Virus record (IMG/VR): IMGVR_UViG_3300048890_000052
Span: 1-40,090 of that record
DNA: 40,090 nucleotides
Source of the DNA: a virus
Direction: 5' to 3' (one strand)
How positions within the stretch are numbered: the stretch's first letter is position 1; each line of letters starts with the position of its first letter. The position numbers and the translations under genes were made by a program. Under the pieces are notes generated by a model. The model made no database searches and had not been told where the DNA came from. It saw nothing but the letters and a program-made list of their open reading frames with translations. Shown here one piece after another: positions 18,178 through 37,732 of this stretch.

Positions 18178-19820
18178 GCGGCATCCTGCGCGATCGCGCC
18201 CGCCCTGGTCAGGTCGAGCGTCGCGCCGGCGGCCTGCTCGAGACCGGCCAGTGTCGCCGAGGCGGCCTTCTCCTGCGCGCGCTGGGCCCGGCGGGCGGCG
18301 ATCTCATCGGCCGTCCTGGTCCATGTTTTGCGCACGCCCAGCGCGTCGGCCAGGCCGGGCCCCGCTTCCTCGAGGTTGATCACGTCGCCGATGATATCGG
18401 GATCTGTCTGCGCGAACGGCGCCAGCACCTCGACCAGGCGCGACATGCCCGCCGCTTCCTGCGCCCGCGCCATCCGCCGCAGCGGATTGTCATATTCGAT
18501 CTGGGGATGCGCGCCCGCCTCCTGCACGACGGGCGGCGGCGGCTCGATCTGCCCCGAGCGCAGCGCCTCCTCAAATTCGCGCTGGGTGATCGGGTTCTGT
18601 TTCTCGCCCTGGTAGCGGCTCGCATAGGGTGCGACGATCACGCCCTGCTTGCCGGCGATCTCAAGCACCGCCGTCGCCGAACGCTGCACCGCATCGTCGG
18701 TCAGCAGCTTGAAATAGGATCCGAGGAACCCGTCATCGATGATCGCGCGCTCGCTCTCGAGCAGTTCGACCCCGACGGGCAGATTGCCATCGCCGGGCAT
18801 GGCATGGACAAGCGGGCGCCCATCCTCGTTGACCATGCCCGGGTTAGCGCCGCCGGGCTTGGTAACGAGCCGGGTGACCCCGTCGTCGCTGTAGAACAGC
18901 AGCGCCGGATCGACCGCCTTGTGGCCGGCGCGAATGATCGTCTGCGCCTGGGCATTGGCCAGGTTGATATTGGGCAGGACGTCCATCGCGGGCGATCGCC
19001 CATATTTCTCGCCGGGACTGGTCACATGGCGCGAGACCGTGATCGGCATGGTGAAATAACCACCACGCCGCAGCATCATCTTTTCATCTGGCGCGATGTA
19101 AAGCGAGGACACCGGCTTGCCGCGATAGTCGAGACGCGCAGTATCCATTTCATCATTGGGCCGGACCGTATGAACAATCTCGAATTCTTCATTGGGCTTG
19201 TCGCGCTGCAGAGCATCGAGCATCTTGGGCGTCAGGTTTTGCTCGCCGAACTGCTGCTTGAGCTGTCGGGCCGTGCGCTTGAGGCAGCGCCTGGCCGTGT
19301 CGACCATCCCGACATAGTCCACATCGATGTAGGTTTCGGCGAGCGGGATCGCCTTGTAGAACAGGCCGACACCGGGCTTGACGTCCGTCCAGAACGGCGA
19401 CGTGCCATAGCTGCCGAGCTGGCGAAAATCCTCATGCGCGGCCACGCCGAACATGGCGTGCGCGCGATAGCGCATGGCGTAGAGCCGATCGCCGGCATAT
19501 TCGCACCAGCGCCGCACCTCCGGCAACTTGTCGAGATCCTTGTCGGCGAACTTGACCTCGATGTACTGACGCGCCTCGGGCACGGTGATATCGCTCATCG
19601 CCGCGGAAAAGCGGTTGAGGCCGCGCGATGCCGAGCTGTCGAAATTGCGCTGGCCGCGCCGGGCGCCGGGCGTTGTCGGGTTGAAACCGGTCAGGCCCAG
19701 CCGCCCCTCGATCTCGCGCCACTGATCCTCATAGGGCGAGCGCTCGCCCTTCATGCGCTCGAGCTCGGCGATCTCGCGCTTGACCAGCCCTTCATCCTGC
19801 AGCTTGTCGTCCATCTTCAA
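18174..19820 (-). CDS. Portal protein (T7 gp8-like head-to-tail connector), 548 aa
   Basis: Size, position, and an N-terminal region (ERSPYEDQWREI..NFDSSASRGLNRFSAAM) resembling the podovirus head-to-tail connector family. Confidence 0.8.
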   Translation of the reverse strand: MKMDDKLQDEGLVKREIAELERMKGERSPYEDQWREIEGRLGLTGFNPTTPGARRGQRNFDSSASRGLNRFSAAMSDITVPEARQYIEVKFADKDLDKLPEVRRWCEYAGDRLYAMRYRAHAMFGVAAHEDFRQLGSYGTSPFWTDVKPGVGLFYKAIPLAETYIDVDYVGMVDTARRCLKRTARQLKQQFGEQNLTPKMLDALQRDKPNEEFEIVHTVRPNDEMDTARLDYRGKPVSSLYIAPDEKMMLRRGGYFTMPITVSRHVTSPGEKYGRSPAMDVLPNINLANAQAQTIIRAGHKAVDPALLFYSDDGVTRLVTKPGGANPGMVNEDGRPLVHAMPGDGNLPVGVELLESERAIIDDGFLGSYFKLLTDDAVQRSATAVLEIAGKQGVIVAPYASRYQGEKQNPITQREFEEALRSGQIEPPPPVVQEAGAHPQIEYDNPLRRMARAQEAAGMSRLVEVLAPFAQTDPDIIGDVINLEEAGPGLADALGVRKTWTRTADEIAARRAQRAQEKAASATLAGLEQAAGATLDLTRAGAIAQDAA

Positions 19821-20471: not shown

Positions 20472-20719
20472 CTGCCGAGGGTGAGTTTTGCACCGGGTGC
20501 GGCGGCCTCGGCGCCCTTGACCCCGCCCAGAATGTCCGCCGCGCCGCCCTTGCGCCGCAGCAGCTCATCGTTCGCCATCGCTTGCGCCTTGGCATCGTCG
20601 CGCGTCGCCGACGGCAGCGGCTGAATTGGCGCAGCCGCTTTCTTCCCGCCGAAAATCGACGTCGCCAGCCCCAGAACGCCGCCCGTGAGCGCACCCAAAA
20701 CCTTGTCGACCATGGTCAT
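20468..20719 (-). CDS. Hypothetical small protein (83 aa)
   Basis: ATGA overlap with the terL stop. Gly-rich hydrophobic N-terminus (VLGALTGGVLGLATSIFGG). Confidence 0.5.
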   Translation of the reverse strand: MTMVDKVLGALTGGVLGLATSIFGGKKAAAPIQPLPSATRDDAKAQAMANDELLRRKGGAADILGGVKGAEAAAPGAKLTLGS

Positions 20720-22275
20720 CCTCCATTGAAACGAAACTCGTCATAATCGCCGTCGACCGTGGCGGCCGCGCCGCCGCCGCGCGGCTGCCCGCGAATGTCG
20801 GAAATCACATGCTCGCCCTCGAGCGCCGCATATTGCTCGGCGTCGGCGACATGGGTGTAGATCGTGTCGGCGATCTCGAGATTGCCGCGCAGCTCGCCCG
20901 TGCTCATTTCCTGTTTCTGGTAGCGATAGCCACCCGAATGAGCCTTGATCAGGTGCTTGCAGCCGGGGTCGACATAGTATCCGTCCTGCTTGCCCATCGC
21001 CTTCCAGATCGCCTCGTTGCGCAGCCCCGCAGCGTTGCTTTTCGCCTTGAAGATCTTGCCCATGCCGATCGCCGCCTGGACCGCCAACACCCAGTCGCGG
21101 CCATCATTCGGCCGATCCTCGGCGGCGAAGGCGGCGGGATCACAGACCAATTTGACCTGGTCGCGCTGGATCCCCGGAAAGCGCTCGAGCAGCGCCTGTT
21201 TCACCCGCCGGCCGAACCCTTCCGCGCTGATCTTGACCAGCGCCTTGCCGCCGGTGGCCAGGCTCACCACCTCGCCGAGCGTACGAATATCGCCCTGGGC
21301 GTCGCGCTGCAGGAAGACGGCGGCGGCGCTGTAGCCCTGGTCGATGCCGACGATCAACTTGCGCCGCTTGTCCCAGCGCTCCTCGCGAACGTGGCGGGTA
21401 TAGACGAATTCATCATTGACCGGCTGCCCGTGCATCAGCGGCACCGGCTTGTTGTGTACCATGCGGTCGACATAGTTTTTCTTGTGCCGGTTCGCCGCGA
21501 TCTGCAGCACGTAATAGCCCCGGCCATTGTGCAGATTATGGAGGTTTTCCGCGTCCGGCTCCATCCCGCCGGGCTGCACGAACGTCTCGATCAGCTCGCG
21601 CCCGCCGAGCGCTTCCTTGAGCTGGCCCGTGTCCGCGTCCGAGAGCTCGCCGAGCTGCTTGTCGAATGCGAGCTGGTAGGCATGATTGTCGATATCCGGC
21701 ATGTTCATCGACACGATGATCTGCGGATCGACGACATTGCTCGGGTCGAGATCGGAGAAACGCCCGACGCGGCCCGTCAGGAATGGCACCAGGTCGGCGG
21801 GCTGCAGATCCGCCTCATCGATCATCACCGCGTTGATTTCCCAGCCGCGGCAGGCTTCCTCGACCGTCTGCTGGCCGATGCCCCGGAACTCATATTCCAT
21901 CTCGAGGATCTCGGTCGGCTTGCCAGTCTCCGGATCGCGCTTCAGCACCTTGGCGAACTGGTGCGTGTAGGGCGGCGACCAGTTGAAGCCCTTGTCCTCG
22001 GGCACGATGTTGAACCAGCTCTTGAGCGTCGTCGACTTGAGCGACGGATAGCTTTCGCGGATGACGCCGATGCGGGCCTTGCGCCGCCAGATCCCGCGCG
22101 CATCCTGCACCCGGCCTTGTTTCGCGCCGACCATGAGCCCCGTTTGCAACGCCGCCATCGTCTTGCCCGACCCCACCGGCCCGATAATGACCTTGATGAA
22201 CGCCCGCGACCGCAGAAACGCATCCGCCACCGGCCCCGGCGAGCGCAACAGGCGAGGCTTGGCGGGCGCGTTCAT
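20716..22275 (-). CDS. terL: Terminase large subunit
   Basis: Walker A IIGPVGSGKT, Walker B AVMIDEAD, C-terminal nuclease-sized domain. Preceded by a coupled small-subunit gene. Confidence 0.9.
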   Translation of the reverse strand: MNAPAKPRLLRSPGPVADAFLRSRAFIKVIIGPVGSGKTMAALQTGLMVGAKQGRVQDARGIWRRKARIGVIRESYPSLKSTTLKSWFNIVPEDKGFNWSPPYTHQFAKVLKRDPETGKPTEILEMEYEFRGIGQQTVEEACRGWEINAVMIDEADLQPADLVPFLTGRVGRFSDLDPSNVVDPQIIVSMNMPDIDNHAYQLAFDKQLGELSDADTGQLKEALGGRELIETFVQPGGMEPDAENLHNLHNGRGYYVLQIAANRHKKNYVDRMVHNKPVPLMHGQPVNDEFVYTRHVREERWDKRRKLIVGIDQGYSAAAVFLQRDAQGDIRTLGEVVSLATGGKALVKISAEGFGRRVKQALLERFPGIQRDQVKLVCDPAAFAAEDRPNDGRDWVLAVQAAIGMGKIFKAKSNAAGLRNEAIWKAMGKQDGYYVDPGCKHLIKAHSGGYRYQKQEMSTGELRGNLEIADTIYTHVADAEQYAALEGEHVISDIRGQPRGGGAAATVDGDYDEFRFNGG

Positions 22276-26777: not shown

Positions 26778-26935
26778 CAGTCTAGCCCCCGATGCGCTGG
26801 ACAGAGAGCGGCCCATGCCCCCCCCCTGCCGAAAGCACGATTGGCAAAGATCACTTCCCATCCGCTGGGCGCCGCCTCCGGCAGCGTCCCGATCGCCTTC
26901 GCGGCGCACTTCCGGCATCGAACCAACTCTCTCAC
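26777..26935 (-). CDS. Small zinc-ribbon-like protein (52 aa, GTG start)
   Basis: GTG overlaps the primase TGA (GTGA). RELVRCRKCAAKAIG..WAALCPAH gives a CxxC...CxxH pattern. Its stop overlaps the next ATG. Confidence 0.4.
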   Translation of the reverse strand: MRELVRCRKCAAKAIGTLPEAAPSGWEVIFANRAFGRGGAWAALCPAHRGLD

Positions 26936-28041
26936 GCCGCCCTCTCCCCACCAGCCCGCGCACCGCGCTGCAGCCATAAATTGAGATCCTTCACCCCCAC
27001 AGGCGGCATCACATATTGGACGTGCATGCCGCGCGCCTGCTGCCGCGCAATCACCCGCTCGAGCAGGTCGGTGGCCTTGCTGCCCGCCTCATCGCGGTCG
27101 CACAGCAGCACCAGGCGCCGGACGTGCTCGGGAAAGACGATCGACCCGATATTGCCCAGCGAGTACCCGGCATCGATGCGGATCTCGGGCTTGGCCATCG
27201 CGGCGGTCAGGCAATCCTCGATCCCCTCGGCCATATGCTCGACCTCGCCTTCCGGCATCTGCGACATGGACTTGCCCGAGGGGCCGTGCCGCAATGGGAT
27301 GAACGACCCCGCGCAGGCGCCCAGCACCATCTTGGCATTGGGACTGTCCAGCTTCACCCAGCCCTTGCGCTCGCACCAGCGCAAATAGGTGCGATGGCTC
27401 GCCACATGCACGCCCGCCGGCGTCACCATCTGGGCGATCATCGCCGGGATCTTGAGCCCCTGCTCGCGGTTCCACACTTCGGCATGGAATTTCAGCGAAC
27501 CCGGCCATTTGCCCAGCCGCGCCACATCGATGCCACGCCCGCGCAGATAGGCTTCCGCCGGCGTCCCAGCGATCGGCTTGGCCCCCATCCACAGCGCCAC
27601 CGCGCGCTTGCGCTTGACCTCCTTCAGCTCGGCCGCCTTGATCACATCGGCCTCGGCCGATGCACGCGCCTCGCGCTTCTTCGTCTCGAGCCGATCGGCA
27701 TCGAGCCCGTCCAGGCCCAGCCAGCTCTTGGCCCATTTGATCGCGTCGACCAGCTCGCCCCGGAACAATATCTTGGCGATCAGCAGCAGGCAGTCGCCGC
27801 CGCCATCGTCGCTGCCCAGCGCCGCGAAATCCGCCCACATGCCGCGATTGGGCCCGTCGACATTGATCTTGAGACTCTGCCCCGGCTCGCCGGACAGCGA
27901 CCCCACGCACAGATAATGCCCGTCCCGCTTCGCATTGGGCAGCAGCTGCCACACCAGCGCCTCGACCTGGGCGCGCAGCAGCTGCTCGATCTCGCGCACC
28001 TCGATCGCGAATTGCGGTCTATCCCGGGCCGGGGCGTTCAT
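26932..28041 (-). CDS. Toprim-domain primase-like protein (369 aa)
   Basis: HMAEGIEDCLTAAMA (Toprim Glu) and LVLLCDRDEAGSKA (DxD). Architecture resembles alphaproteobacterial prophage primase-like proteins. No zinc finger in the protein itself. Confidence 0.8.
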   Translation of the reverse strand: MNAPARDRPQFAIEVREIEQLLRAQVEALVWQLLPNAKRDGHYLCVGSLSGEPGQSLKINVDGPNRGMWADFAALGSDDGGGDCLLLIAKILFRGELVDAIKWAKSWLGLDGLDADRLETKKREARASAEADVIKAAELKEVKRKRAVALWMGAKPIAGTPAEAYLRGRGIDVARLGKWPGSLKFHAEVWNREQGLKIPAMIAQMVTPAGVHVASHRTYLRWCERKGWVKLDSPNAKMVLGACAGSFIPLRHGPSGKSMSQMPEGEVEHMAEGIEDCLTAAMAKPEIRIDAGYSLGNIGSIVFPEHVRRLVLLCDRDEAGSKATDLLERVIARQQARGMHVQYVMPPVGVKDLNLWLQRGARAGGERAA

Positions 28042-28163
28042 CGCCGTTCATCCCTGGGCAGCGGATTTCCCGGCAGGCCCGGCAGCACGCAGAAATGATA
28101 TTCGTAGGGCGCGACCGGCAACAAACGACCGCACTTCGGGCAACAGGCCGGACTGGTGCTCAT
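28038..28163 (-). CDS. Micro-ORF (41 aa) with CCPKCG motif, coupled to the primase
   Basis: MSTSPACCPKCGRLLPVAPYEYHFCVLPGLPGNPLPRDERR. Its ATG overlaps the upstream TGA and its stop overlaps the primase ATG. It is below the ORF-track size cutoff. Confidence 0.4.
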   Translation of the reverse strand: MSTSPACCPKCGRLLPVAPYEYHFCVLPGLPGNPLPRDERR

Positions 28164-28408
28164 CGCGCCCACTCCGGCGGCCATGCGCCGCCTTCGGGCC
28201 CGGCGGGGGAAACGGGAGAAAACCCCGCCGGGCCGTCGGCGACCCGGCGCGCGTCCTGATCGGCGCGCGCTTGGGAACCGAGTAATTCCTGTAATCTGCG
28301 ATCGGCCACGAGCAGCTCGGTCAACGCATCATTGACCGCCCGCACCGCATTGGCCTTGCGATAGCGCGCCAGATCGAGCTGATCGCCGCCGCCGCCCATC
28401 AGCCGCAC
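28160..28408 (-). CDS. Hypothetical protein (82 aa; alternative ATG at 28399), first gene of the leftward replication operon
   Basis: Helical (LARYRKANAVRAVNDALTELLVADRRLQELL). Coupled to the downstream micro-ORF. Confidence 0.5.
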   Translation of the reverse strand: MRLMGGGGDQLDLARYRKANAVRAVNDALTELLVADRRLQELLGSQARADQDARRVADGPAGFSPVSPAGPEGGAWPPEWAR

Positions 28409-28492
28409 CCCGCCAGAGCGGCGGGCAGGATTGCTCCCGCCCGCCTACCGGTCCATCCAGACAGAGCGACCAGACAAGGAGGGACCGGAACC

Positions 28493-28753
28493 GTGGACTT
28501 GATCGATATCGAAATGCGCCTGATCGTGCTGGAAACGATGGTGGCGGACCTGACCGCCCGGCGCTTCGCCGACGAGGCGGCCATGCGCCGCTGGACGGAA
28601 GAAAACGACGCGCAGCTCACCGCGCACGAGGAACGGTCGAAGCACAAGCCAGAGGTCATCGCACGTCACCGCGCGGTATGGGACGCAATGCTCGCAACAG
28701 TGCGCGCACGGTTTCAGCACTTGAACAGGCCGCCAGCCAGGGATCCCGGCTGA
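28493..28753 (+). CDS. Hypothetical helical protein (86 aa)
   Basis: GTG start 10 nt after a strong AAGGAGGG. High GC3. Divergent from the replication operon. Confidence 0.55.
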   Translation: MDLIDIEMRLIVLETMVADLTARRFADEAAMRRWTEENDAQLTAHEERSKHKPEVIARHRAVWDAMLATVRARFQHLNRPPARDPG

Positions 28754-28897
28754 CACCGCCTTGCTCAGCGGCGATCAGCATCACCCGATCGAGCGCCGCC
28801 TCGTGGCTTTGGGAGGGAAAGGCGTCGCCCATCACGCGGCTTTCTCGAATTCAGGCGCGCCGTGATATGGACTAACGACTCGAGGGGGGAATATCGA

Positions 28898-29290
28898 ATG
28901 CGGAAAACATGGGTAATACTTGGCCTGGTGCTGGCAGGTTGCTCGAAAAGTGACAATGCTGCGGACAATAACGGTTACCCGCCGACTGACGCCGTCACGA
29001 CAGCACCAGTAAAAAAGGCGGTTACCGCATGGAGCGACTGCCTCATCTATGGGATCAAGCAAGTCGACAATACGAAGGAACCGGCCGTCACGATCGCGGA
29101 GGCCGCAATGGCGGGATGCACGCGCGCTGAGACGAACCTGGAAGATCGACTGTTTGACGCCATGAAGAAGAGCGGTAATCCACTTGAGGTGCGCGCCATC
29201 GCCGCTGACATGGTGGATGGCTTTCGCACCCGCATGAGATCGCAAACTATCCGATGGGTCTTGTCGAAACATGCGGAGGAGCGTCACTGA
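28898..29290 (+). CDS. Lipoprotein (130 aa), moron-like
   Basis: MRKTWVILGLVLAGCSKSD is a signal peptide with lipobox LAGC. RBS GGGGGGA. Visibly lower GC than its surroundings. Oriented against the flanking phage operon. Confidence 0.7.
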   Translation: MRKTWVILGLVLAGCSKSDNAADNNGYPPTDAVTTAPVKKAVTAWSDCLIYGIKQVDNTKEPAVTIAEAAMAGCTRAETNLEDRLFDAMKKSGNPLEVRAIAADMVDGFRTRMRSQTIRWVLSKHAEERH

Positions 29291-29292
29291 CA

Positions 29293-29535
29293 TCACGCCG
29301 CCACCTGCCGGTGCGACTGCCCGGACGCCCATTCAGGAAGATCGTAAAAATCATTCGGGCTCGCGATCCCTTCGCGGTGGAGTTCGATCAGATAGGCAGC
29401 GCCGGGAACCTCGGTTCCGTTCTCCCAACGCCACCATTGCTGCCGCGTTGCACCGACGATATTGGCTGCGGCCGCCTGGGTCAGGCGGTGTTCGCGCCGC
29501 CATGCCTGCATTTTGGAGTGAGACTGTTTCGCCAT
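29293..29535 (-). CDS. XRE-family HTH regulator (80 aa), Cro-like candidate
   Basis: HRLTQAAAANIVGATRQQWWRWENG is an HTH_3-type motif. Divergent from the second HTH gene across a 71-bp operator region. No SD upstream of the ATG. Confidence 0.8.
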   Translation of the reverse strand: MAKQSHSKMQAWRREHRLTQAAAANIVGATRQQWWRWENGTEVPGAAYLIELHREGIASPNDFYDLPEWASGQSHRQVAA

Positions 29536-29546
29536 GGGACAGTCTG

Positions 29547-29563
29547 GTAACGCCTAACGTTAC
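29547..29563. promoter_or_regulatory. Operator O1, perfect GTAACG-N5-CGTTAC
   Basis: GTAACGCCTAACGTTAC, located between the divergent HTH genes. Confidence 0.65.
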
Positions 29564-29579
29564 AACTTGACAACCCCAT

Positions 29580-29596
29580 GTAACGTATGGCGTATC
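29580..29596. promoter_or_regulatory. Operator O2, imperfect (GTAACG-TATGG-CGTATC)
   Basis: Starts 33 bp after the O1 start. There are two mismatches in the right half-site. Confidence 0.5.
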
Positions 29597-29606
29597 TTTT
29601 TTGCTT

Positions 29607-29978
29607 ATGCAGAATGTCGTACCTTTCATTGCGATGGACGAGTTTCCAAATCGCATCAATGAGCTACGGCGCATGGCTGGCCTGACGCAGGAAGCGTTGG
29701 CCAACCTGCTCGGCACGTCCAAAATGAACGTATCCCGTTACGAGACCGGCAAGCAGGATCTCACCATTGACTGGATGCGACGTTTTGCCGAAGCCTTGGG
29801 CTGCGAGCCGGCGGAAATTCTCAGCGACCAGGACAACCCGATGCGACTGCGCCCGACCGAACGGCAGCTGATCACCCGCTTCCGCTCAGGATCCCCCGAC
29901 CGTCAGGACGATCTGCGCCGGGTTGCTGAAACCCTCATCCCCTACACCCCTCAACCGCGCGATCGCAGCGCCGCTTGA
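29607..29978 (+). CDS. XRE-family HTH regulator (123 aa from ATG 29607; TTG 29601 possible), CI-like candidate without peptidase domain
   Basis: LRRMAGLTQEALANLLGTSKMNVSRYETGKQDLT is an HTH_3-type motif. No S24-like C-terminal domain. No SD upstream. Confidence 0.8.
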   Translation: MQNVVPFIAMDEFPNRINELRRMAGLTQEALANLLGTSKMNVSRYETGKQDLTIDWMRRFAEALGCEPAEILSDQDNPMRLRPTERQLITRFRSGSPDRQDDLRRVAETLIPYTPQPRDRSAA

Positions 29979-30347
29979 TCACGGCCACGCGCGCGCCAAA
30001 CCCGCGCGCATCTGCGCCGCGCCCAGATCGCGGCCCTCAACCGCGCACCGCACGATCGGGCGCCCATATCGATCATCCGGCGCCACCCGGGCACAATCGA
30101 TCGGTCCCCGCGCCGCCAGCGAACGGATATGGTTACGAGACTTGAAACCAAGCGGGAAATCGCACCAACTGTGTCGGCCTGGACGGCGGCACTTTGGGCT
30201 GCCGGGTAGTTCCGGCGCGTCGATCGCTGCTAGCCGCATTGTTCGGCCGCCACAGCGGATATCGTCGCCATCATGAAAATAGGGCGCATCGCAGCGGAAG
30301 CTGCCGCCCGATACCGCCAGCGCGAGCGAGAGTGAGAAAATGAACAT
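29979..30347 (-). CDS. Secreted thermonuclease (SNase)-like nuclease (122 aa)
   Basis: Signal peptide MFIFSLSLALAVSGG. HDGDDIRCGGRTMRLAAIDAPE matches the SNase DGDT..RLxGIDAPE motif. The later DRYGRPIV..GLARAW is also SNase-like. Confidence 0.8.
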   Translation of the reverse strand: MFIFSLSLALAVSGGSFRCDAPYFHDGDDIRCGGRTMRLAAIDAPELPGSPKCRRPGRHSWCDFPLGFKSRNHIRSLAARGPIDCARVAPDDRYGRPIVRCAVEGRDLGAAQMRAGLARAWP

Positions 30348-30484
30348 GCCAGCACCCTAACACGAGCGCGGATGCATCCTGCCTAAAACCGCGCCGAAAC
30401 GGCTTGAAATTTGTAAGCTGCAAACCGAGAGATGCCCAGGCACACTCGGTTCGTCGCATTTTTGTTCGCTATCCGTTCCGATAT

Positions 30485-30501
30485 GTAACGGTAGGTGATA
30501 C
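30485..30501. promoter_or_regulatory. Operator O3, imperfect (GTAACG-GTAGG-TGATAC)
   Basis: Same left half-site and N5 spacing as O1. Starts 33 bp before the O4 start. Confidence 0.45.
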
Positions 30502-30509
30502 TTTTTAGC

Positions 30510-30537
30510 TTGACCTTGTAACGTATACCGTTACTTC
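30510..30537 (+). promoter_or_regulatory. Rightward early promoter candidate
   Basis: TTGACC (30510-30515), a 16-nt spacer, then TACTTC (30532-30537). Operator O4 lies in the spacer and the -10 element. Confidence 0.4.
30518..30534. promoter_or_regulatory. Operator O4, perfect GTAACG-N5-CGTTAC
   Basis: GTAACGTATACCGTTAC, overlapping the candidate rightward promoter. Confidence 0.65.
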
Positions 30538-30540
30538 TGT

Positions 30541-30560
30541 CCTCCGTTAACCCACGGAGG
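30541..30560 (+). promoter_or_regulatory. Hairpin pairing the Shine-Dalgarno of the first rightward gene
   Basis: CCTCCG-TTAACCCA-CGGAGG. The GGAGG of the 3' arm is the SD, and ATG 30566 follows it after a 5-nt spacer. Confidence 0.4.
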
Positions 30561-30565
30561 GCATC

Positions 30566-30973
30566 ATGCACCTTGTCCACACTACCCCACCGCCCAGCGC
30601 CCCGGTCGCCTGCATTGCCGAGGCCCGCGCCGCGCGCCACGCCGTGCAGGACCGGGCCGAACCGACCTGGCCGATGCACACCATCGCCCGCAAGCTCGGC
30701 GTCAACCACCGCAGCGCGCGCTGGCAGCGCGACTACATCACCGCCCTGATCGTCAACGAGGGCTTTCCCCAGCCGCTGCCGACCCTGGTCAGCGGCGCGA
30801 TCAGCCGCGAGATCTCGCCGGCGAAATCGCGCTGGATCCCCGCCGCGGTCGCCGCCTGGCTCGGCGGCACACTACCCCCCGGCACCCTCGCCGCGCTCGA
30901 CAGCGCCGACGCCCGCGACGCCGCCGACCGCCTCGACGCCCGCGCCGACGCCCTGTTCGGAGGCGCGGCATGA
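30566..30973 (+). CDS. Hypothetical early protein (135 aa)
   Basis: Good RBS. First gene after the operator-controlled promoter. MHTIARKLGVNHRSARWQRDYI may be helix-turn-helix-like. Confidence 0.6.
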   Translation: MHLVHTTPPPSAPVACIAEARAARHAVQDRAEPTWPMHTIARKLGVNHRSARWQRDYITALIVNEGFPQPLPTLVSGAISREISPAKSRWIPAAVAAWLGGTLPPGTLAALDSADARDAADRLDARADALFGGAA

Positions 30974-31512
30974 AGCTCATCAACATCGACGGCCGCGATC
31001 ACGCCAGCTGCATCCGCGATGAGCAGGACGGGATGAACGCGCTCATCGTCAACGAAGACGTCACCTACATTCCGGCCGGAAAGCTGCGGCTGACCGCGCG
31101 CGGCGAGACGGACGCCAAGCTGTCCACCATCCTGCTGCTAGTATCCACCGGCGACGCCGGCCTGCACTGCACCATGACCCCCGATGCCTGCCGCAATCTG
31201 GCGCGGCAGCTTCTGTCCGTCGCCGGCATGGTCGAGGCCAATGCCGCCCAGGCAGCGGCAGACGCCATCGCACGCGCCAGAACAGGGGGGGGGGAAGGCA
31301 TGAAAGCCGCAGACCTCACCCAGCCGCTCGACGCGATCGCCGACAAGCTGAAATTCTACCGCTTCCTCGGTCGCCACGCGGAGGCCGAGGCCGCTGGTCA
31401 CGCGCTGGCCCTCGGCCTGAACTTCCAGCTCGAACTGTCGCGCCTCGAGATCCTCGAGGCGAAGATGGACGCCGAGCCCGAGGACAGCGCCGGCCGGCAG
31501 GTGGCGGCATGA
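30970..31512 (+). CDS. Hypothetical protein (180 aa)
   Basis: ATGA overlap with the upstream gene. High GC3. Confidence 0.55.
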   Translation: MKLINIDGRDHASCIRDEQDGMNALIVNEDVTYIPAGKLRLTARGETDAKLSTILLLVSTGDAGLHCTMTPDACRNLARQLLSVAGMVEANAAQAAADAIARARTGGGEGMKAADLTQPLDAIADKLKFYRFLGRHAEAEAAGHALALGLNFQLELSRLEILEAKMDAEPEDSAGRQVAA

Positions 31513-32253: not shown

Positions 32254-32551
32254 TGTGGGCGGGCAAACAGCTGCCGGCGACGGCTACGGCTCCGGCTCCG
32301 GCTACGGCGACGGCTCCGGCTCCGGCTACGGCTCCGGCTACGGCGACGGCTCCGGCTACGGCGACGGCTCCGGCTACGGCGACGGCTCCGGCTACGGCGA
32401 CGGCTCCGGCTACGGCTCCGGCGACGGCGACGGCTCCGGCTACGGCTCCGGCTCCGGCTACGGCTACGGCTACGGCGACGGCGACGGCTCCGGCTCCGGC
32501 TACGGCGACGGCTCCGGCTCCGGCGACGGCTCCGGCTACGGCTCCGGCTGA
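32240..32551 (+). CDS. (Gly-X)n low-complexity repeat protein, X = Asp/Tyr/Ser (103 aa from ATG 32240; GTG 32255 possible)
   Basis: This frame gives GDGYGSGSGYGDGSGSGYG.. and ends at TGA 32549-32551 directly after the repeat. The same frame continues into the DUF4326-like ORF. Confidence 0.4.
   Translation: MRAVDVGGQTAAGDGYGSGSGYGDGSGSGYGSGYGDGSGYGDGSGYGDGSGYGDGSGYGSGDGDGSGYGSGSGYGYGYGDGDGSGSGYGDGSGSGDGSGYGSG
32276..32548. repeat. Hexanucleotide tandem repeat (GGC-GAC / GGC-TAC / GGC-TCC), about 45 units
   Basis: Uninterrupted 273 nt of GGCNNC units. It is open in all three plus-strand frames and in at least one minus-strand frame (ORF 32189-32680). Confidence 0.9.
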
Positions 32552-35186: not shown

Positions 35187-35449
35187 ACGACACGCCAAAG
35201 GAGCACCGCGTGAAAAACAAATTGTCCGACCTCAACAACCATCTTTTCGCCCAGCTCGAGCGACTGTCGGATGAGGAGCTTACGCCGGAACAGATCGAGC
35301 ATGAAGTCAAGCGTGCCGACGCGATCTGCGCGGTGGCGGACCAGATCGCGCGGGGCGCGGACCTGCAGCTCAAGGCGTGCAAGCTGATCGCGGACCATGG
35401 CGATCGCTTCATCCATCAGCTGCCCATGATCGAGCAGAAAATCGCATGA
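35183..35449 (+). CDS. Hypothetical helical protein (88 aa)
   Basis: ATGA-coupled at both ends. Amphipathic, acidic. Confidence 0.5.
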   Translation: MNDTPKEHRVKNKLSDLNNHLFAQLERLSDEELTPEQIEHEVKRADAICAVADQIARGADLQLKACKLIADHGDRFIHQLPMIEQKIA

Positions 35450-36084
35450 GGGGACGCGCGATCCTGTACAGCGCCGATGAACTCGCGTGGATCGAACGGC
35501 GCAAGGACTGGAAGCGCTCGGATCTGCATGCCGCCTTCCGCACCCAGTTCGGCCGTGCCGACGTCTCCTGCGCGCATATCAAGGCCCTGTGCAAACGTCG
35601 GGGCTGGTTCACCGGCAGGACTGGCCGGTTTGATCCGGGCGCCGTGCCTGCGAACAAGGGCAAGAAGATGCCCTATCACCCGAACAGTGCCGCGACCCGC
35701 TTCAAAAAGGGCAATTTGCCGCACAATACCCAGTATCTCGGCCATGAACGCCTGTCGAAGGACGGCTATGTCGAGATCAGCGTCGACCAGCCGAACCCGC
35801 ACACCGGCTTTTCCCGCCGCTATGTGCAGAAGCATCGCTGGTTATGGGAACAGGCCAACGGCCCGGTGCCGGCAGGCATGGTGCTCAAATGCCTGGGCGA
35901 CAAGCTGGATACCGATCCGTCGAACTGGAAGCTGGTGCCACGCGCCATCCTGCCCCGGCTGAACGGCCGCTTCGGACGAGGCTATGACACCGCCGCGGCC
36001 GAAGTGAAGCCGACGATCATGGCCATCGCGGAGCTCGAGCACCGAGCCCGGATGGCAAAAGCCAAGGAGCAAGGCGGTGAGTGA
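35446..36084 (+). CDS. HNH endonuclease (212 aa)
   Basis: GYVEISVDQPNPHTGFSRRYVQKHRWLWEQANGPVPAGMVLKCLGDKLDTDPSNWKL follows the HNH_3-type pattern. Confidence 0.75.
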   Translation: MRGRAILYSADELAWIERRKDWKRSDLHAAFRTQFGRADVSCAHIKALCKRRGWFTGRTGRFDPGAVPANKGKKMPYHPNSAATRFKKGNLPHNTQYLGHERLSKDGYVEISVDQPNPHTGFSRRYVQKHRWLWEQANGPVPAGMVLKCLGDKLDTDPSNWKLVPRAILPRLNGRFGRGYDTAAAEVKPTIMAIAELEHRARMAKAKEQGGE

Positions 36085-36451: not shown

Positions 36452-37732
36452 ATGGCAAAGATCGACATTCCCGGCCTGGTCATCAAGACCCGCGGCGCCC
36501 GCGTCTACCATTATTGGCAGCCGTCGGCCGCGCTGCGCAAGGCGGGCTGGACGGCCCTCACCCTCGGATCCGACCTGCGCACCGCCATGAAGCTGGCCGA
36601 GGCGCAGAACGACAAGGTCGAGGAGTGGCGCAGCGGCGGCGCCAAGCCCCGCCAGGTCAGGAAGTTCATCGCCGGCGGCACCGTCGACCAGCTGATCGCC
36701 CGCTTCAAGGCGCTGCGCTATCCCACGATCAAGCCCAGCACCGAAAAAACCTACAACTGGGCCCTGGGCGCGATCAGCAAATGGGCCGGGCCGGAGAAGG
36801 TCGCCCACATCGATCGCAACCGGGTACGCAAGCTGCGCGACGTGCTGCTGAAACCCGACAGCTTGACCGGCATCGTCAGCCTCAACCGCGCCAACGGCAT
36901 CATGCGCGTGCTTTCCACGCTGATGAAATTCGCGATCGACGAAGGCTTTTTGCAGCAGGACGCCCGCAACCCGGCCTCCGATCACAATGTCCCGTCGGCG
37001 GATCCACGCCATCAGGTCTGGTCGCCCGCCGCCGTCGACCTGATCGTCGCGGCCGCGCTCGAGGCGGGCCAGCCCGGGCTGGCGCTCGCCATCCTGCTCG
37101 CCCGCGAATGCGCGCAGCGCGAGGGCGACCTCATCAAGTTCCCGATCAGCAAATGGGCCGCCATTCCCCGCCACAAGCTCGAGGCCGACGACTGGGAGCG
37201 CATGGCCGAGCCCGGCCCGGACGGCACCCGCGACGTGCGCGGCGTGCGCCTGCGCCAGGGCAAGACCAATCGCTGGATCGAGGTGCCGATCGTCGGCGAC
37301 ACCCGCCGCCTGATCGAGGACGCGATCGCCGAGGCGCGCCAGGACGGCACCACCGTCCTGCTGCAGGAGCGCCGCCAGGACGCCCAGGGCGAGGCCGTGC
37401 GCGTGCCGTGGACCGGAACACGCCTGCAACGCGCCATCGCCGCCCTGCGGCCACTGGCGGCCGCCAGCGCGCGCGAAAATGGCGATGAGGATCTCGCGGC
37501 CGAGATCGAGGATCTGCAATTCCGCGACCTGCGGCGCACCGCCGTCGTCTGGCTGGGAGAGCTCGGCATCGAGGACCACCTGATCGCCGCGATCACCGGC
37601 CACAATCTTGACCAGACCAAGCAGATCCTCGAGACCTACATGCCCCGCAATACCAAGATGGCCGGCAAGGCGATCGCGCTCCGCCTCGAGCGCGACCGGA
37701 CGACGCCGGCGACGAAGGAGAAGCAGGCGTGA
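36452..37732 (+). CDS. int: Tyrosine integrase (426 aa)
   Basis: C-terminal catalytic signature FRDLRRTAV (Arg), AITGH (His), ILETYMP (Tyr). N-terminal SAM-like region. Adjacent to a tRNA-derived attP candidate. Confidence 0.9.
   Translation: MAKIDIPGLVIKTRGARVYHYWQPSAALRKAGWTALTLGSDLRTAMKLAEAQNDKVEEWRSGGAKPRQVRKFIAGGTVDQLIARFKALRYPTIKPSTEKTYNWALGAISKWAGPEKVAHIDRNRVRKLRDVLLKPDSLTGIVSLNRANGIMRVLSTLMKFAIDEGFLQQDARNPASDHNVPSADPRHQVWSPAAVDLIVAAALEAGQPGLALAILLARECAQREGDLIKFPISKWAAIPRHKLEADDWERMAEPGPDGTRDVRGVRLRQGKTNRWIEVPIVGDTRRLIEDAIAEARQDGTTVLLQERRQDAQGEAVRVPWTGTRLQRAIAALRPLAAASARENGDEDLAAEIEDLQFRDLRRTAVVWLGELGIEDHLIAAITGHNLDQTKQILETYMPRNTKMAGKAIALRLERDRTTPATKEKQA

Follow-up and report, generated by a model that had tools for sequence, protein, structure and literature searches.

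Introduction

The immunity region of phage lambda places the repressor gene and its trailing morons between two clusters of one palindromic operator of 17 bp. Each cluster overlaps an early promoter that fires outward, a divergent cro gene adjoins one cluster, and one weak site lies over the repressor's own promoter. Here we describe a region of the same plan in a 40,090-nt stretch (the window) of IMG/VR virus record IMGVR_UViG_3300048890_000052, a contig of 40,188 bp. Four copies of a 17-bp palindrome, grouped in two pairs, flank the gene for a CI-like protein; very probably they are the immunity operators of a temperate phage of about 40 kb, the predicted binder being the 123-aa CI-like repressor and probably also an 80-aa Cro-like protein. 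The analogy with lambda OL and OR that an earlier note on this DNA had drawn holds for the layout, in which two operator clusters over outward-firing promoters flank the repressor gene. It extends to the repressor mRNA, probably leaderless here as in lambda, and to the membrane-protein morons that relatives carry in the orientation of the repressor gene, as rex with cI.

Other features separate this region from lambda. Each cluster contains two sites, compared with three in lambda, and these lie 33 bp apart centre to centre with a -35 hexamer between them, whereas adjacent lambda sites are spaced by 23-24 bp. The repressor gene is oriented away from the leftward lytic promoter and towards the rightward one, its 123-aa product lacks the S24 cleavage/oligomerisation domain, and the clusters are 0.5-1.7 kb apart in the phages considered here as against 2.3 kb in lambda. 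Since neither the three adjacent sites nor the S24 domain is present, we regard the region as a phage CI/Cro switch with flanking operators and not as a lambda homologue.

Partial likenesses are found elsewhere. C.AhdI, a restriction-modification controller, is a small dimeric protein of the XRE helix-turn-helix (HTH) type, as the 123-aa protein may be, and binds cooperatively to two neighbouring palindromes at its own promoter. The similarity is confined to the HTH, however; the C.AhdI operator is compact (about 35 bp) with no intervening -35, and its biological role is a different one. The Gifsy repressors GfoR and GtgR are short, non-cleavable lambdoid repressors that are induced through LexA-controlled antirepressors (PMC3121763; Lemire et al. 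2011). They share with the present system a short CI-type repressor without autocleavage domain and a candidate host SOS box in the phage, and SOS input here would probably likewise come via LexA and not through repressor cleavage. Unlike in Gifsy, no antirepressor gene is recognised among the annotated proteins of the window, and the candidate SOS box falls within the immunity region, adjoining an operator. Rco of pLS20 is a tetrameric XRE regulator acting at overlapping divergent promoters with formation of a DNA loop (PMC4207663). It too has an XRE-type HTH, a weak promoter of its own that overlaps a strong divergent one, and two separated operator regions; the regulator described here may resemble it in being both repressor and indirect activator of its own promoter. 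In contrast, Rco is part of a conjugation system of Gram-positive bacteria, its operators are many short repeats placed much closer together, and its tetramerisation has been demonstrated, whereas a tetramer of the phage repressor would be hypothetical. A description of this operator or of this phage group was not found in the literature searched.

Results

Four probable operator sites in two pairs

The four sites share the motif GTAACG-N5-CGTTAC. O1 (29547-29563; GTAACGCCTAACGTTAC) is a perfect palindrome, O2 (29580-29596; GTAACGTATGGCGTATC) is degenerate with CGTATC as its right half, and O3 (30485-30501; GTAACGGTAGGTGATAC) is followed by a second perfect site, O4 (30518-30534; GTAACGTATACCGTTAC). 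The earlier note had given these positions and sequences correctly to the base, and the identical spacing that it claimed for both pairs is exact: 33 bp from start to start, or about three helical turns. O1 is separated from O3 by 938 bp and from O4 by 971 bp, again from start to start.

A search of the whole window allowing up to two mismatches, as had been proposed in the note, returned six matches where 0.39 were expected, a number that was reached in 0 of 100 shuffles. Two of the six (at 18862, and at 29725 within the CI-like gene) are surplus to the operators and score as background with a position weight matrix. For this test the matrix was trained solely on the sites of two distant relatives (L001 and L011). 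Applied window-wide, it ranked O1, O4, O2 and O3 as the top four sequences (23.1, 22.1, 15.4 and 14.2 bits, respectively), while the fifth-ranked score, 10.9 bits, equals the mean maximum in random sequence of equal composition. Each cluster has two sites 33 bp apart and no third site above background, as opposed to the three tandem sites at about 23-24 bp that typify lambda. Since the window is nearly the entire contig and related contigs are of similar size (38-41 kb), the count is essentially that of a whole genome: four sites and no more. Repeated motifs other than the operators were not found in the two promoter regions.

Two degenerate operator-like matches were considered as further operators. 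One (TGAACGTATCCCGTTAC, 29725-29741) lies in the repressor gene and the other (CGAACGGATATGGTTAC, 30120-30136) in the neighbouring SNase-like gene; both are part of a common 30-nt direct repeat with 73% identity. The first is kept solely in a relative whose repressor is 80% identical, where it encodes the recognition helix KMNVSRYE, and the second shows no conservation. Both are probably non-functional as operators.

Conservation of the layout and of its specificity

Relatives were drawn from GenBank metagenomic phages (L001, L002), from a protein collection combined with contig look-ups (L007-L014) and from a DNA-pattern scan with the pair-1 core in IMG/VR and JGI metagenomes (L015-L029). A protein-based locus search of IMG/VR gave no relatives, and a protein-based search of GTDB genomes gave distant HTH proteins only, in Firmicutes and Streptomyces. 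Ten distinct loci, namely the window, L001, L007, L011, L015, L016, L017, L018, L023 and L024, form the set carrying GTAAC-N7-GTTAC. For the three relatives in which it was measured, identity of the repressor to the window protein is 80% (L007), 52% (L011) and 48% (L001).

In all ten loci pair 1 lies between divergent Cro-like and CI-like genes, and pair 2 is always immediately upstream of the first rightward gene, whatever intervenes. The spacing within pairs is 33 bp throughout, except in L011 (32 and 31 bp) and in one pair of L024 (32 bp), and TTGAC is found within every pair spacer (10/10 loci). Recurrence of the two-pair layout, of the 31-33 bp spacing and of TTGAC in the spacers in nine other loci bears out the view that the sites are real operators at promoters. 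O1 is perfect in nine of the ten. O2 is the weakest site in every one, with two or three mismatches in the promoter-proximal half. That the perfect sites face outward, as the note had put it, describes the window and fails as a general rule, since O3 is perfect in 4 of the 10 loci. In alignments of the two regions, half-sites, TTGAC(AA) hexamers and start codons make up the invariant columns, whereas the central 5-7 bp and the flanks diverge. Altogether, these data show that the four sites are non-random, conserved, and placed consistently relative to genes and -35 hexamers.

The separation of the two pairs is much less uniform. From O1 to O3 it measures 485, 514, 686, 699, 702, 734, 741, 938, 1183 and 1698 bp in the ten loci, varying because the slot that follows the repressor gene holds variable morons. 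The slot is empty in L011 and L018. In the window and in L007 it carries the SNase-like gene on the opposite strand, and in L001, L007 and the heteroimmune locus L013 a gene for a small membrane protein in the same orientation as the repressor gene. The DNA between repressor gene and pair 2 is thus a moron slot, like the one occupied by rexAB behind lambda cI.

Three further relatives (L013, L002 and L014; 41-45% identity) are heteroimmune. They are devoid of the GTAAC motif and carry instead (A)TATAAGC repeats, at other spacings, that cluster in the two corresponding promoter regions and are all but absent elsewhere (L013, 3948-3998 and 4718-4743; L002, 3436-3487 and 4339-4364; L014, 340-366). 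The recognition helices differ accordingly: that of the CI-like protein reads SKM(N/Q/H)(V/I)S in GTAAC loci versus SQP(A/Y)ISQ in the heteroimmune ones, and that of the Cro-like protein TR(Q/M)(Q/T)W(W/M/N)RW versus SQ(S/P)YVSQ. Operator type and both HTH proteins therefore switch together, which is the signature of heteroimmune modules whose CI and Cro act on common operators.

Geometry of the putative promoters

Promoters and start sites were placed according to geometry read off the sequence. The spacer of each pair is 16 bp long and contains TTGACA or TTGACC. In pair 1, the segment TTGACAA (29567-29573) comprises overlapping back-to-back -35 hexamers, TTGACA on the plus strand and TTGTCA on the minus strand, and is invariant in the ten loci. 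Leftward, TTGTCA is followed after 18 bp by TACCAG, whose TAC is the outer end of O1. O1 would hence span the spacer and -10 of a leftward promoter, P_L, with a predicted start about 2 nt ahead of the Cro-like ATG. Rightward, the right edge of O2 bears a YAKCTK element that is kept across loci and reads TATCTT (29593-29598) in the window. It would double as the -10 of the putative repressor-gene promoter, P_cI, whose core O2 spans, which explains why the right half of the site deviates from GTTAC in every locus (GTATC, GTAGC or GCAGC).

In pair 2, TTGACC (30510-30515, plus strand) is the candidate -35 of a rightward promoter, P_R; its TTGAC is invariant in the ten loci. Sixteen bp further on lies TACTTC (30532-30537), composed of the last 3 nt of O4 and the next 3 nt, with TACTTA or TACATT as counterparts in the relatives; we take it as the likely -10. 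O4 would thus sit over the spacer and -10 of P_R, and O3 would be an auxiliary operator directly upstream of its -35.

The start codons of both regulators lie just outside pair 1, the Cro-like ATG (29535) 11 nt outside O1 and the CI-like ATG (29607) 10 nt beyond O2, and neither is preceded by a Shine-Dalgarno sequence. Since this arrangement is kept in relatives, both mRNAs are probably leaderless or nearly so.

The first rightward early gene (135 aa; 30566-30973, plus strand), which heads the operon controlled from pair 2, is preceded by a hairpin (30538-30563, plus strand) in which its Shine-Dalgarno sequence GGAGG (30556-30560) is paired with an upstream CCUCC (folding free energy -16.8 kcal/mol, z -4.3). 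Equivalent hairpins occur in L007 (5151-5176), L001 (4226-4255), L011 (4510-4533) and the heteroimmune L013 (4758-4782); across the five loci folding energies range from -13 to -19 kcal/mol and z from -3.1 to -5.4, with variable loops and inner bases of the stem. Transcription from P_R is predicted to start within the hairpin's 5' arm (at about 30544), so that the full anti-Shine-Dalgarno sequence would be present solely on transcripts arriving from upstream. In that case mRNA reaching the gene from the repressor promoter would not be translated, in contrast to mRNA begun at P_R.

The two regulators

The CI-like gene (29607-29978, plus strand) encodes a 123-aa protein made of an HTH domain and two C-terminal helices. 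Pfam scores of 49.8 bits for HTH_31 (cut-off 27) and 44.5 bits for HTH_3 (cut-off 23) place it in the XRE family. It also matches PHROG repressor families and is 34% identical to the N-terminal 108 or so residues of the 213-aa cI protein of coliphage mEp213. An S24 peptidase (cleavage/oligomerisation) domain is absent, both by Pfam, which detects HTH families only, and in the AlphaFold2 model. The latter shows a confident five-helix HTH (residues 17-71), followed by helices at 83-94 and 97-108 of low confidence (predicted local distance difference test score about 55-60). Foldseek and PDB sequence searches with the repressor returned generic XRE HTH domains only and left the C-terminal helices unclassified (SinR superimposes with a root-mean-square deviation of 10.8); the best PDB sequence match is C.AhdI (1y7y, E 1.7e-5).

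The Cro-like gene (29293-29535, minus strand) comes first among the genes of the leftward lytic arm. Its 80-aa product is a borderline match to HTH_31 (26.1 bits, under the cut-off of 27) and likewise matches PHROG repressor families.

Proposed switch

The arrangement suggests how the region might operate. Each pair would form a bipartite operator consisting of two 17-bp dimer sites about three turns apart around a -35 hexamer. With 33 bp (3.1 turns) between them, the dimers of a pair would lie roughly on one helix face and flank the -35, a geometry well suited to dimer-dimer cooperativity, which is likely within each pair, and to the occlusion of sigma region 4. O1, the consistently strong site, would cover P_L, the predicted driver of the Cro-like gene and then of the replication and structural genes. 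Because the two pair-1 promoters have their -35 DNA in common, RNA polymerase at one should exclude the other; repressor on O1 would close P_L and thereby free the -35 for P_cI. At high repressor levels, occupancy of the weak O2 would close P_cI in turn, amounting to negative autoregulation. At the other end, the strong O4 would cover P_R, and O3 would help load O4 through dimer-dimer cooperativity.

The leftward replication operon

Neither pattern nor matrix scans of the window detected operator-like sites near 28409-28492, in agreement with the earlier note, which had seen none at the start of the leftward replication operon. The note had gone on to call control of this operon unexplained; the relatives largely explain it. 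In both L011 and L013 the Cro-like gene comes first in an unbroken series with small genes and the primase gene, all on the same strand, which points to an ancestral state with a single leftward operon under the control of pair 1. The window differs in that the Cro-like gene is separated from the primase operon by an insertion of two genes on the plus strand: an 86-aa open reading frame with a strong Shine-Dalgarno sequence (28493-28753) and a lipoprotein gene (28898-29290) in DNA of 55-58% GC. A terminator-like, GC-rich hairpin with a T-rich tail (28249-28226, minus strand) is found upstream of the primase gene and could be an attenuation or antitermination point.

A candidate SOS box beside O3

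A candidate SOS (LexA) box (GTTCGCTATCCGTTC; 30464-30478, plus strand) starts 21 bp upstream of O3 and is the only perfect box of the alphaproteobacterial type in the window. The consensus in Caulobacter is GTTC-N7-GTTC (PMC9578287). One perfect match compares with 0.64 expected, a count that alone is not above chance, and boxes with one mismatch are at chance level. The same box is found at the same offset from O3 in L007 (5076-5090) and in L018 (9521-9535, reverse complement), a distant locus without moron. L015, L017 and L023 each carry GAAC-N7-GAAC on the far side of the Cro-like gene, 311 bp leftward of O1. Two pattern scans for the SOS box in combination with O3 yielded chance matches plus only L018, which was already known.

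For a repressor without a cleavage domain, LexA would be a plausible route of SOS input. We give little credence, however, to a switch of which host LexA would be an integral part, that is, a stripped-down lambda-type switch in which LexA and repressor jointly gate a predicted leftward promoter at O3. Speculatively, the SOS box would cover the start of such a promoter, whose -10 (TACATA; TACAAT in L018) would begin with the TAC at the outer end of O3; a recognisable -35 is missing from the putative promoter. Were this correct, DNA damage would set off a leftward transcript that covers the SNase-like moron and continues, in antisense, across the adjoining repressor gene; in the moron-less L018 it would enter the repressor gene directly. 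The phage would possess SOS-dependent induction for a non-cleavable repressor without an antirepressor and, combined with a minimal loop of two plus two sites, its switch would be wired to the SOS response differently from that of lambda.

Genomic context

The window is a temperate phage genome of 66% GC, in which the immunity region sits between two arms. The minus-strand left arm includes the primase (DUF7146 plus Toprim, phrog_510; 26932-28041), a 651-aa primase/helicase-like protein, the large terminase (20716-22275) and structural genes. The plus-strand right arm begins at 30566, with an HNH endonuclease toward its end (35377-36084) and the integrase at the end (36452-37732). This early arm also contains a hexanucleotide tandem repeat, CGGCTA, of about 46 copies (32275-32549; 82% matches), which in one frame encodes a repeat rich in Gly, Ser, Tyr and Asp. 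The moron slot is occupied by a gene for a 122-aa secreted, SNase-like protein (29979-30347, minus strand). Its earlier designation as a nuclease is weak: the Pfam SNase score is 17.4 bits, below the cut-off of 21, a PDB search with the protein gave no match, and the assignment otherwise consists of a match to phrog_18798. All homologues of a 503-aa flanking protein are unnamed. The window has no tRNA genes, and an Rfam scan of 28000-31200 returned nothing. The host is probably an alphaproteobacterium, judging by the 66% GC, a GapR-type gene in L007 and the candidate SOS box of Caulobacter type.

Discussion

The reading of the palindromes as immunity operators has to be set against several others. 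A loop is one: repressor tetramers on O1-O2 and on O3-O4 might join into an octamer, looping out 0.5-1.7 kb of DNA with the repressor gene, tightening repression of P_L and P_R and being needed to fill the weak O2 (and the weak O3) for autoregulation. Two equal clusters do flank the repressor gene in all ten GTAAC-type loci, O2 is always weak, like lambda OR3, and lambda CI, 186 CI (PMC3675496) and tetrameric Rco (PMC4207663) provide precedents. Yet each pair has its own local promoter to repress, which is reason enough for its existence, and the degeneracy of O2 is more simply ascribed to its encoding the P_cI -10. The distance between pairs is unconserved, varying 3.5-fold (485-1698 bp), and shows no helical phasing over the ten values (Rayleigh p at least 0.06, uncorrected, for every repeat tried), an argument that is weak either way because phasing matters little above about 500 bp. 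In addition, the C-terminal domain through which lambda repressor forms octamers is missing from the 123-aa protein, and the C-terminal helices that might support a tetramer are low-confidence predictions. A long-range loop is thus possible but rather doubtful, and the layout can be explained without it.

Another reading keeps the operators and changes the binder: the main occupant of the sites might be the 80-aa Cro-like protein or a further factor of phage or host, and the 123-aa protein might have a different target. Operator type covaries with the Cro-like recognition helix too, whose unusual W-rich form, TRQQWWRW, is kept within the GTAAC group. On the other hand, CI and Cro have common operators in characterised switches (lambda, P22 and 434 all use the same sites for both proteins), no second repeated motif was found in the two promoter regions, and the gene for this protein is the only regulator gene outside both lytic arms. 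We consider this exchange of roles improbable. As for chance palindromes or a non-regulatory repeat such as the remnant of a duplication, O2 and O3 with their T-rich 3' flanks do resemble each other and could hint at an old promoter-operator duplication. Nevertheless, the shuffles, the matrix from relatives that selects exactly the four sites, and the retention of half-sites while the central 5-7 bp and flanks diverge refute such an origin, to which we assign next to no probability.

The immunity-operator reading, in which we infer the binding protein, the exact promoters, the start sites and cooperativity, meets with difficulties of its own. A consensus sigma-70 scan of 28000-30800 produced 0 canonical promoters and the -10 elements are poor, so that promoter assignments rest on geometry; moreover, the P_cI spacer would be 20 bp if TTGACA is its -35. 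By analogy with lambda PRM, P_cI may be a poor, indirectly activated promoter. The C-terminal helices are of low confidence, so that any oligomeric state of the repressor would be conjectural, and since both HTH proteins covary with the operator, the sequence cannot tell which one binds. Finally, insertion of the two plus-strand genes means that P_L could control the primase operon only by reading through about 0.9 kb in antisense; the alternative would be a second promoter.

Overall, the layout is an ordinary lambda-style one; the finding is solid and useful for annotation, but not surprising. Its value would lie in a candidate genetic switch fully specified for uncultivated GC-rich temperate phages of about 40 kb, with operator consensus (GTAAC-N7-GTTAC), site hierarchy, promoters and two regulators. 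With at least two heteroimmune specificities, the switch would be directly testable and could be used as a compact repressor-operator part for alphaproteobacteria. Representing lambda logic with fewer parts, it would also suit asking how much cooperativity and looping a stable switch needs.

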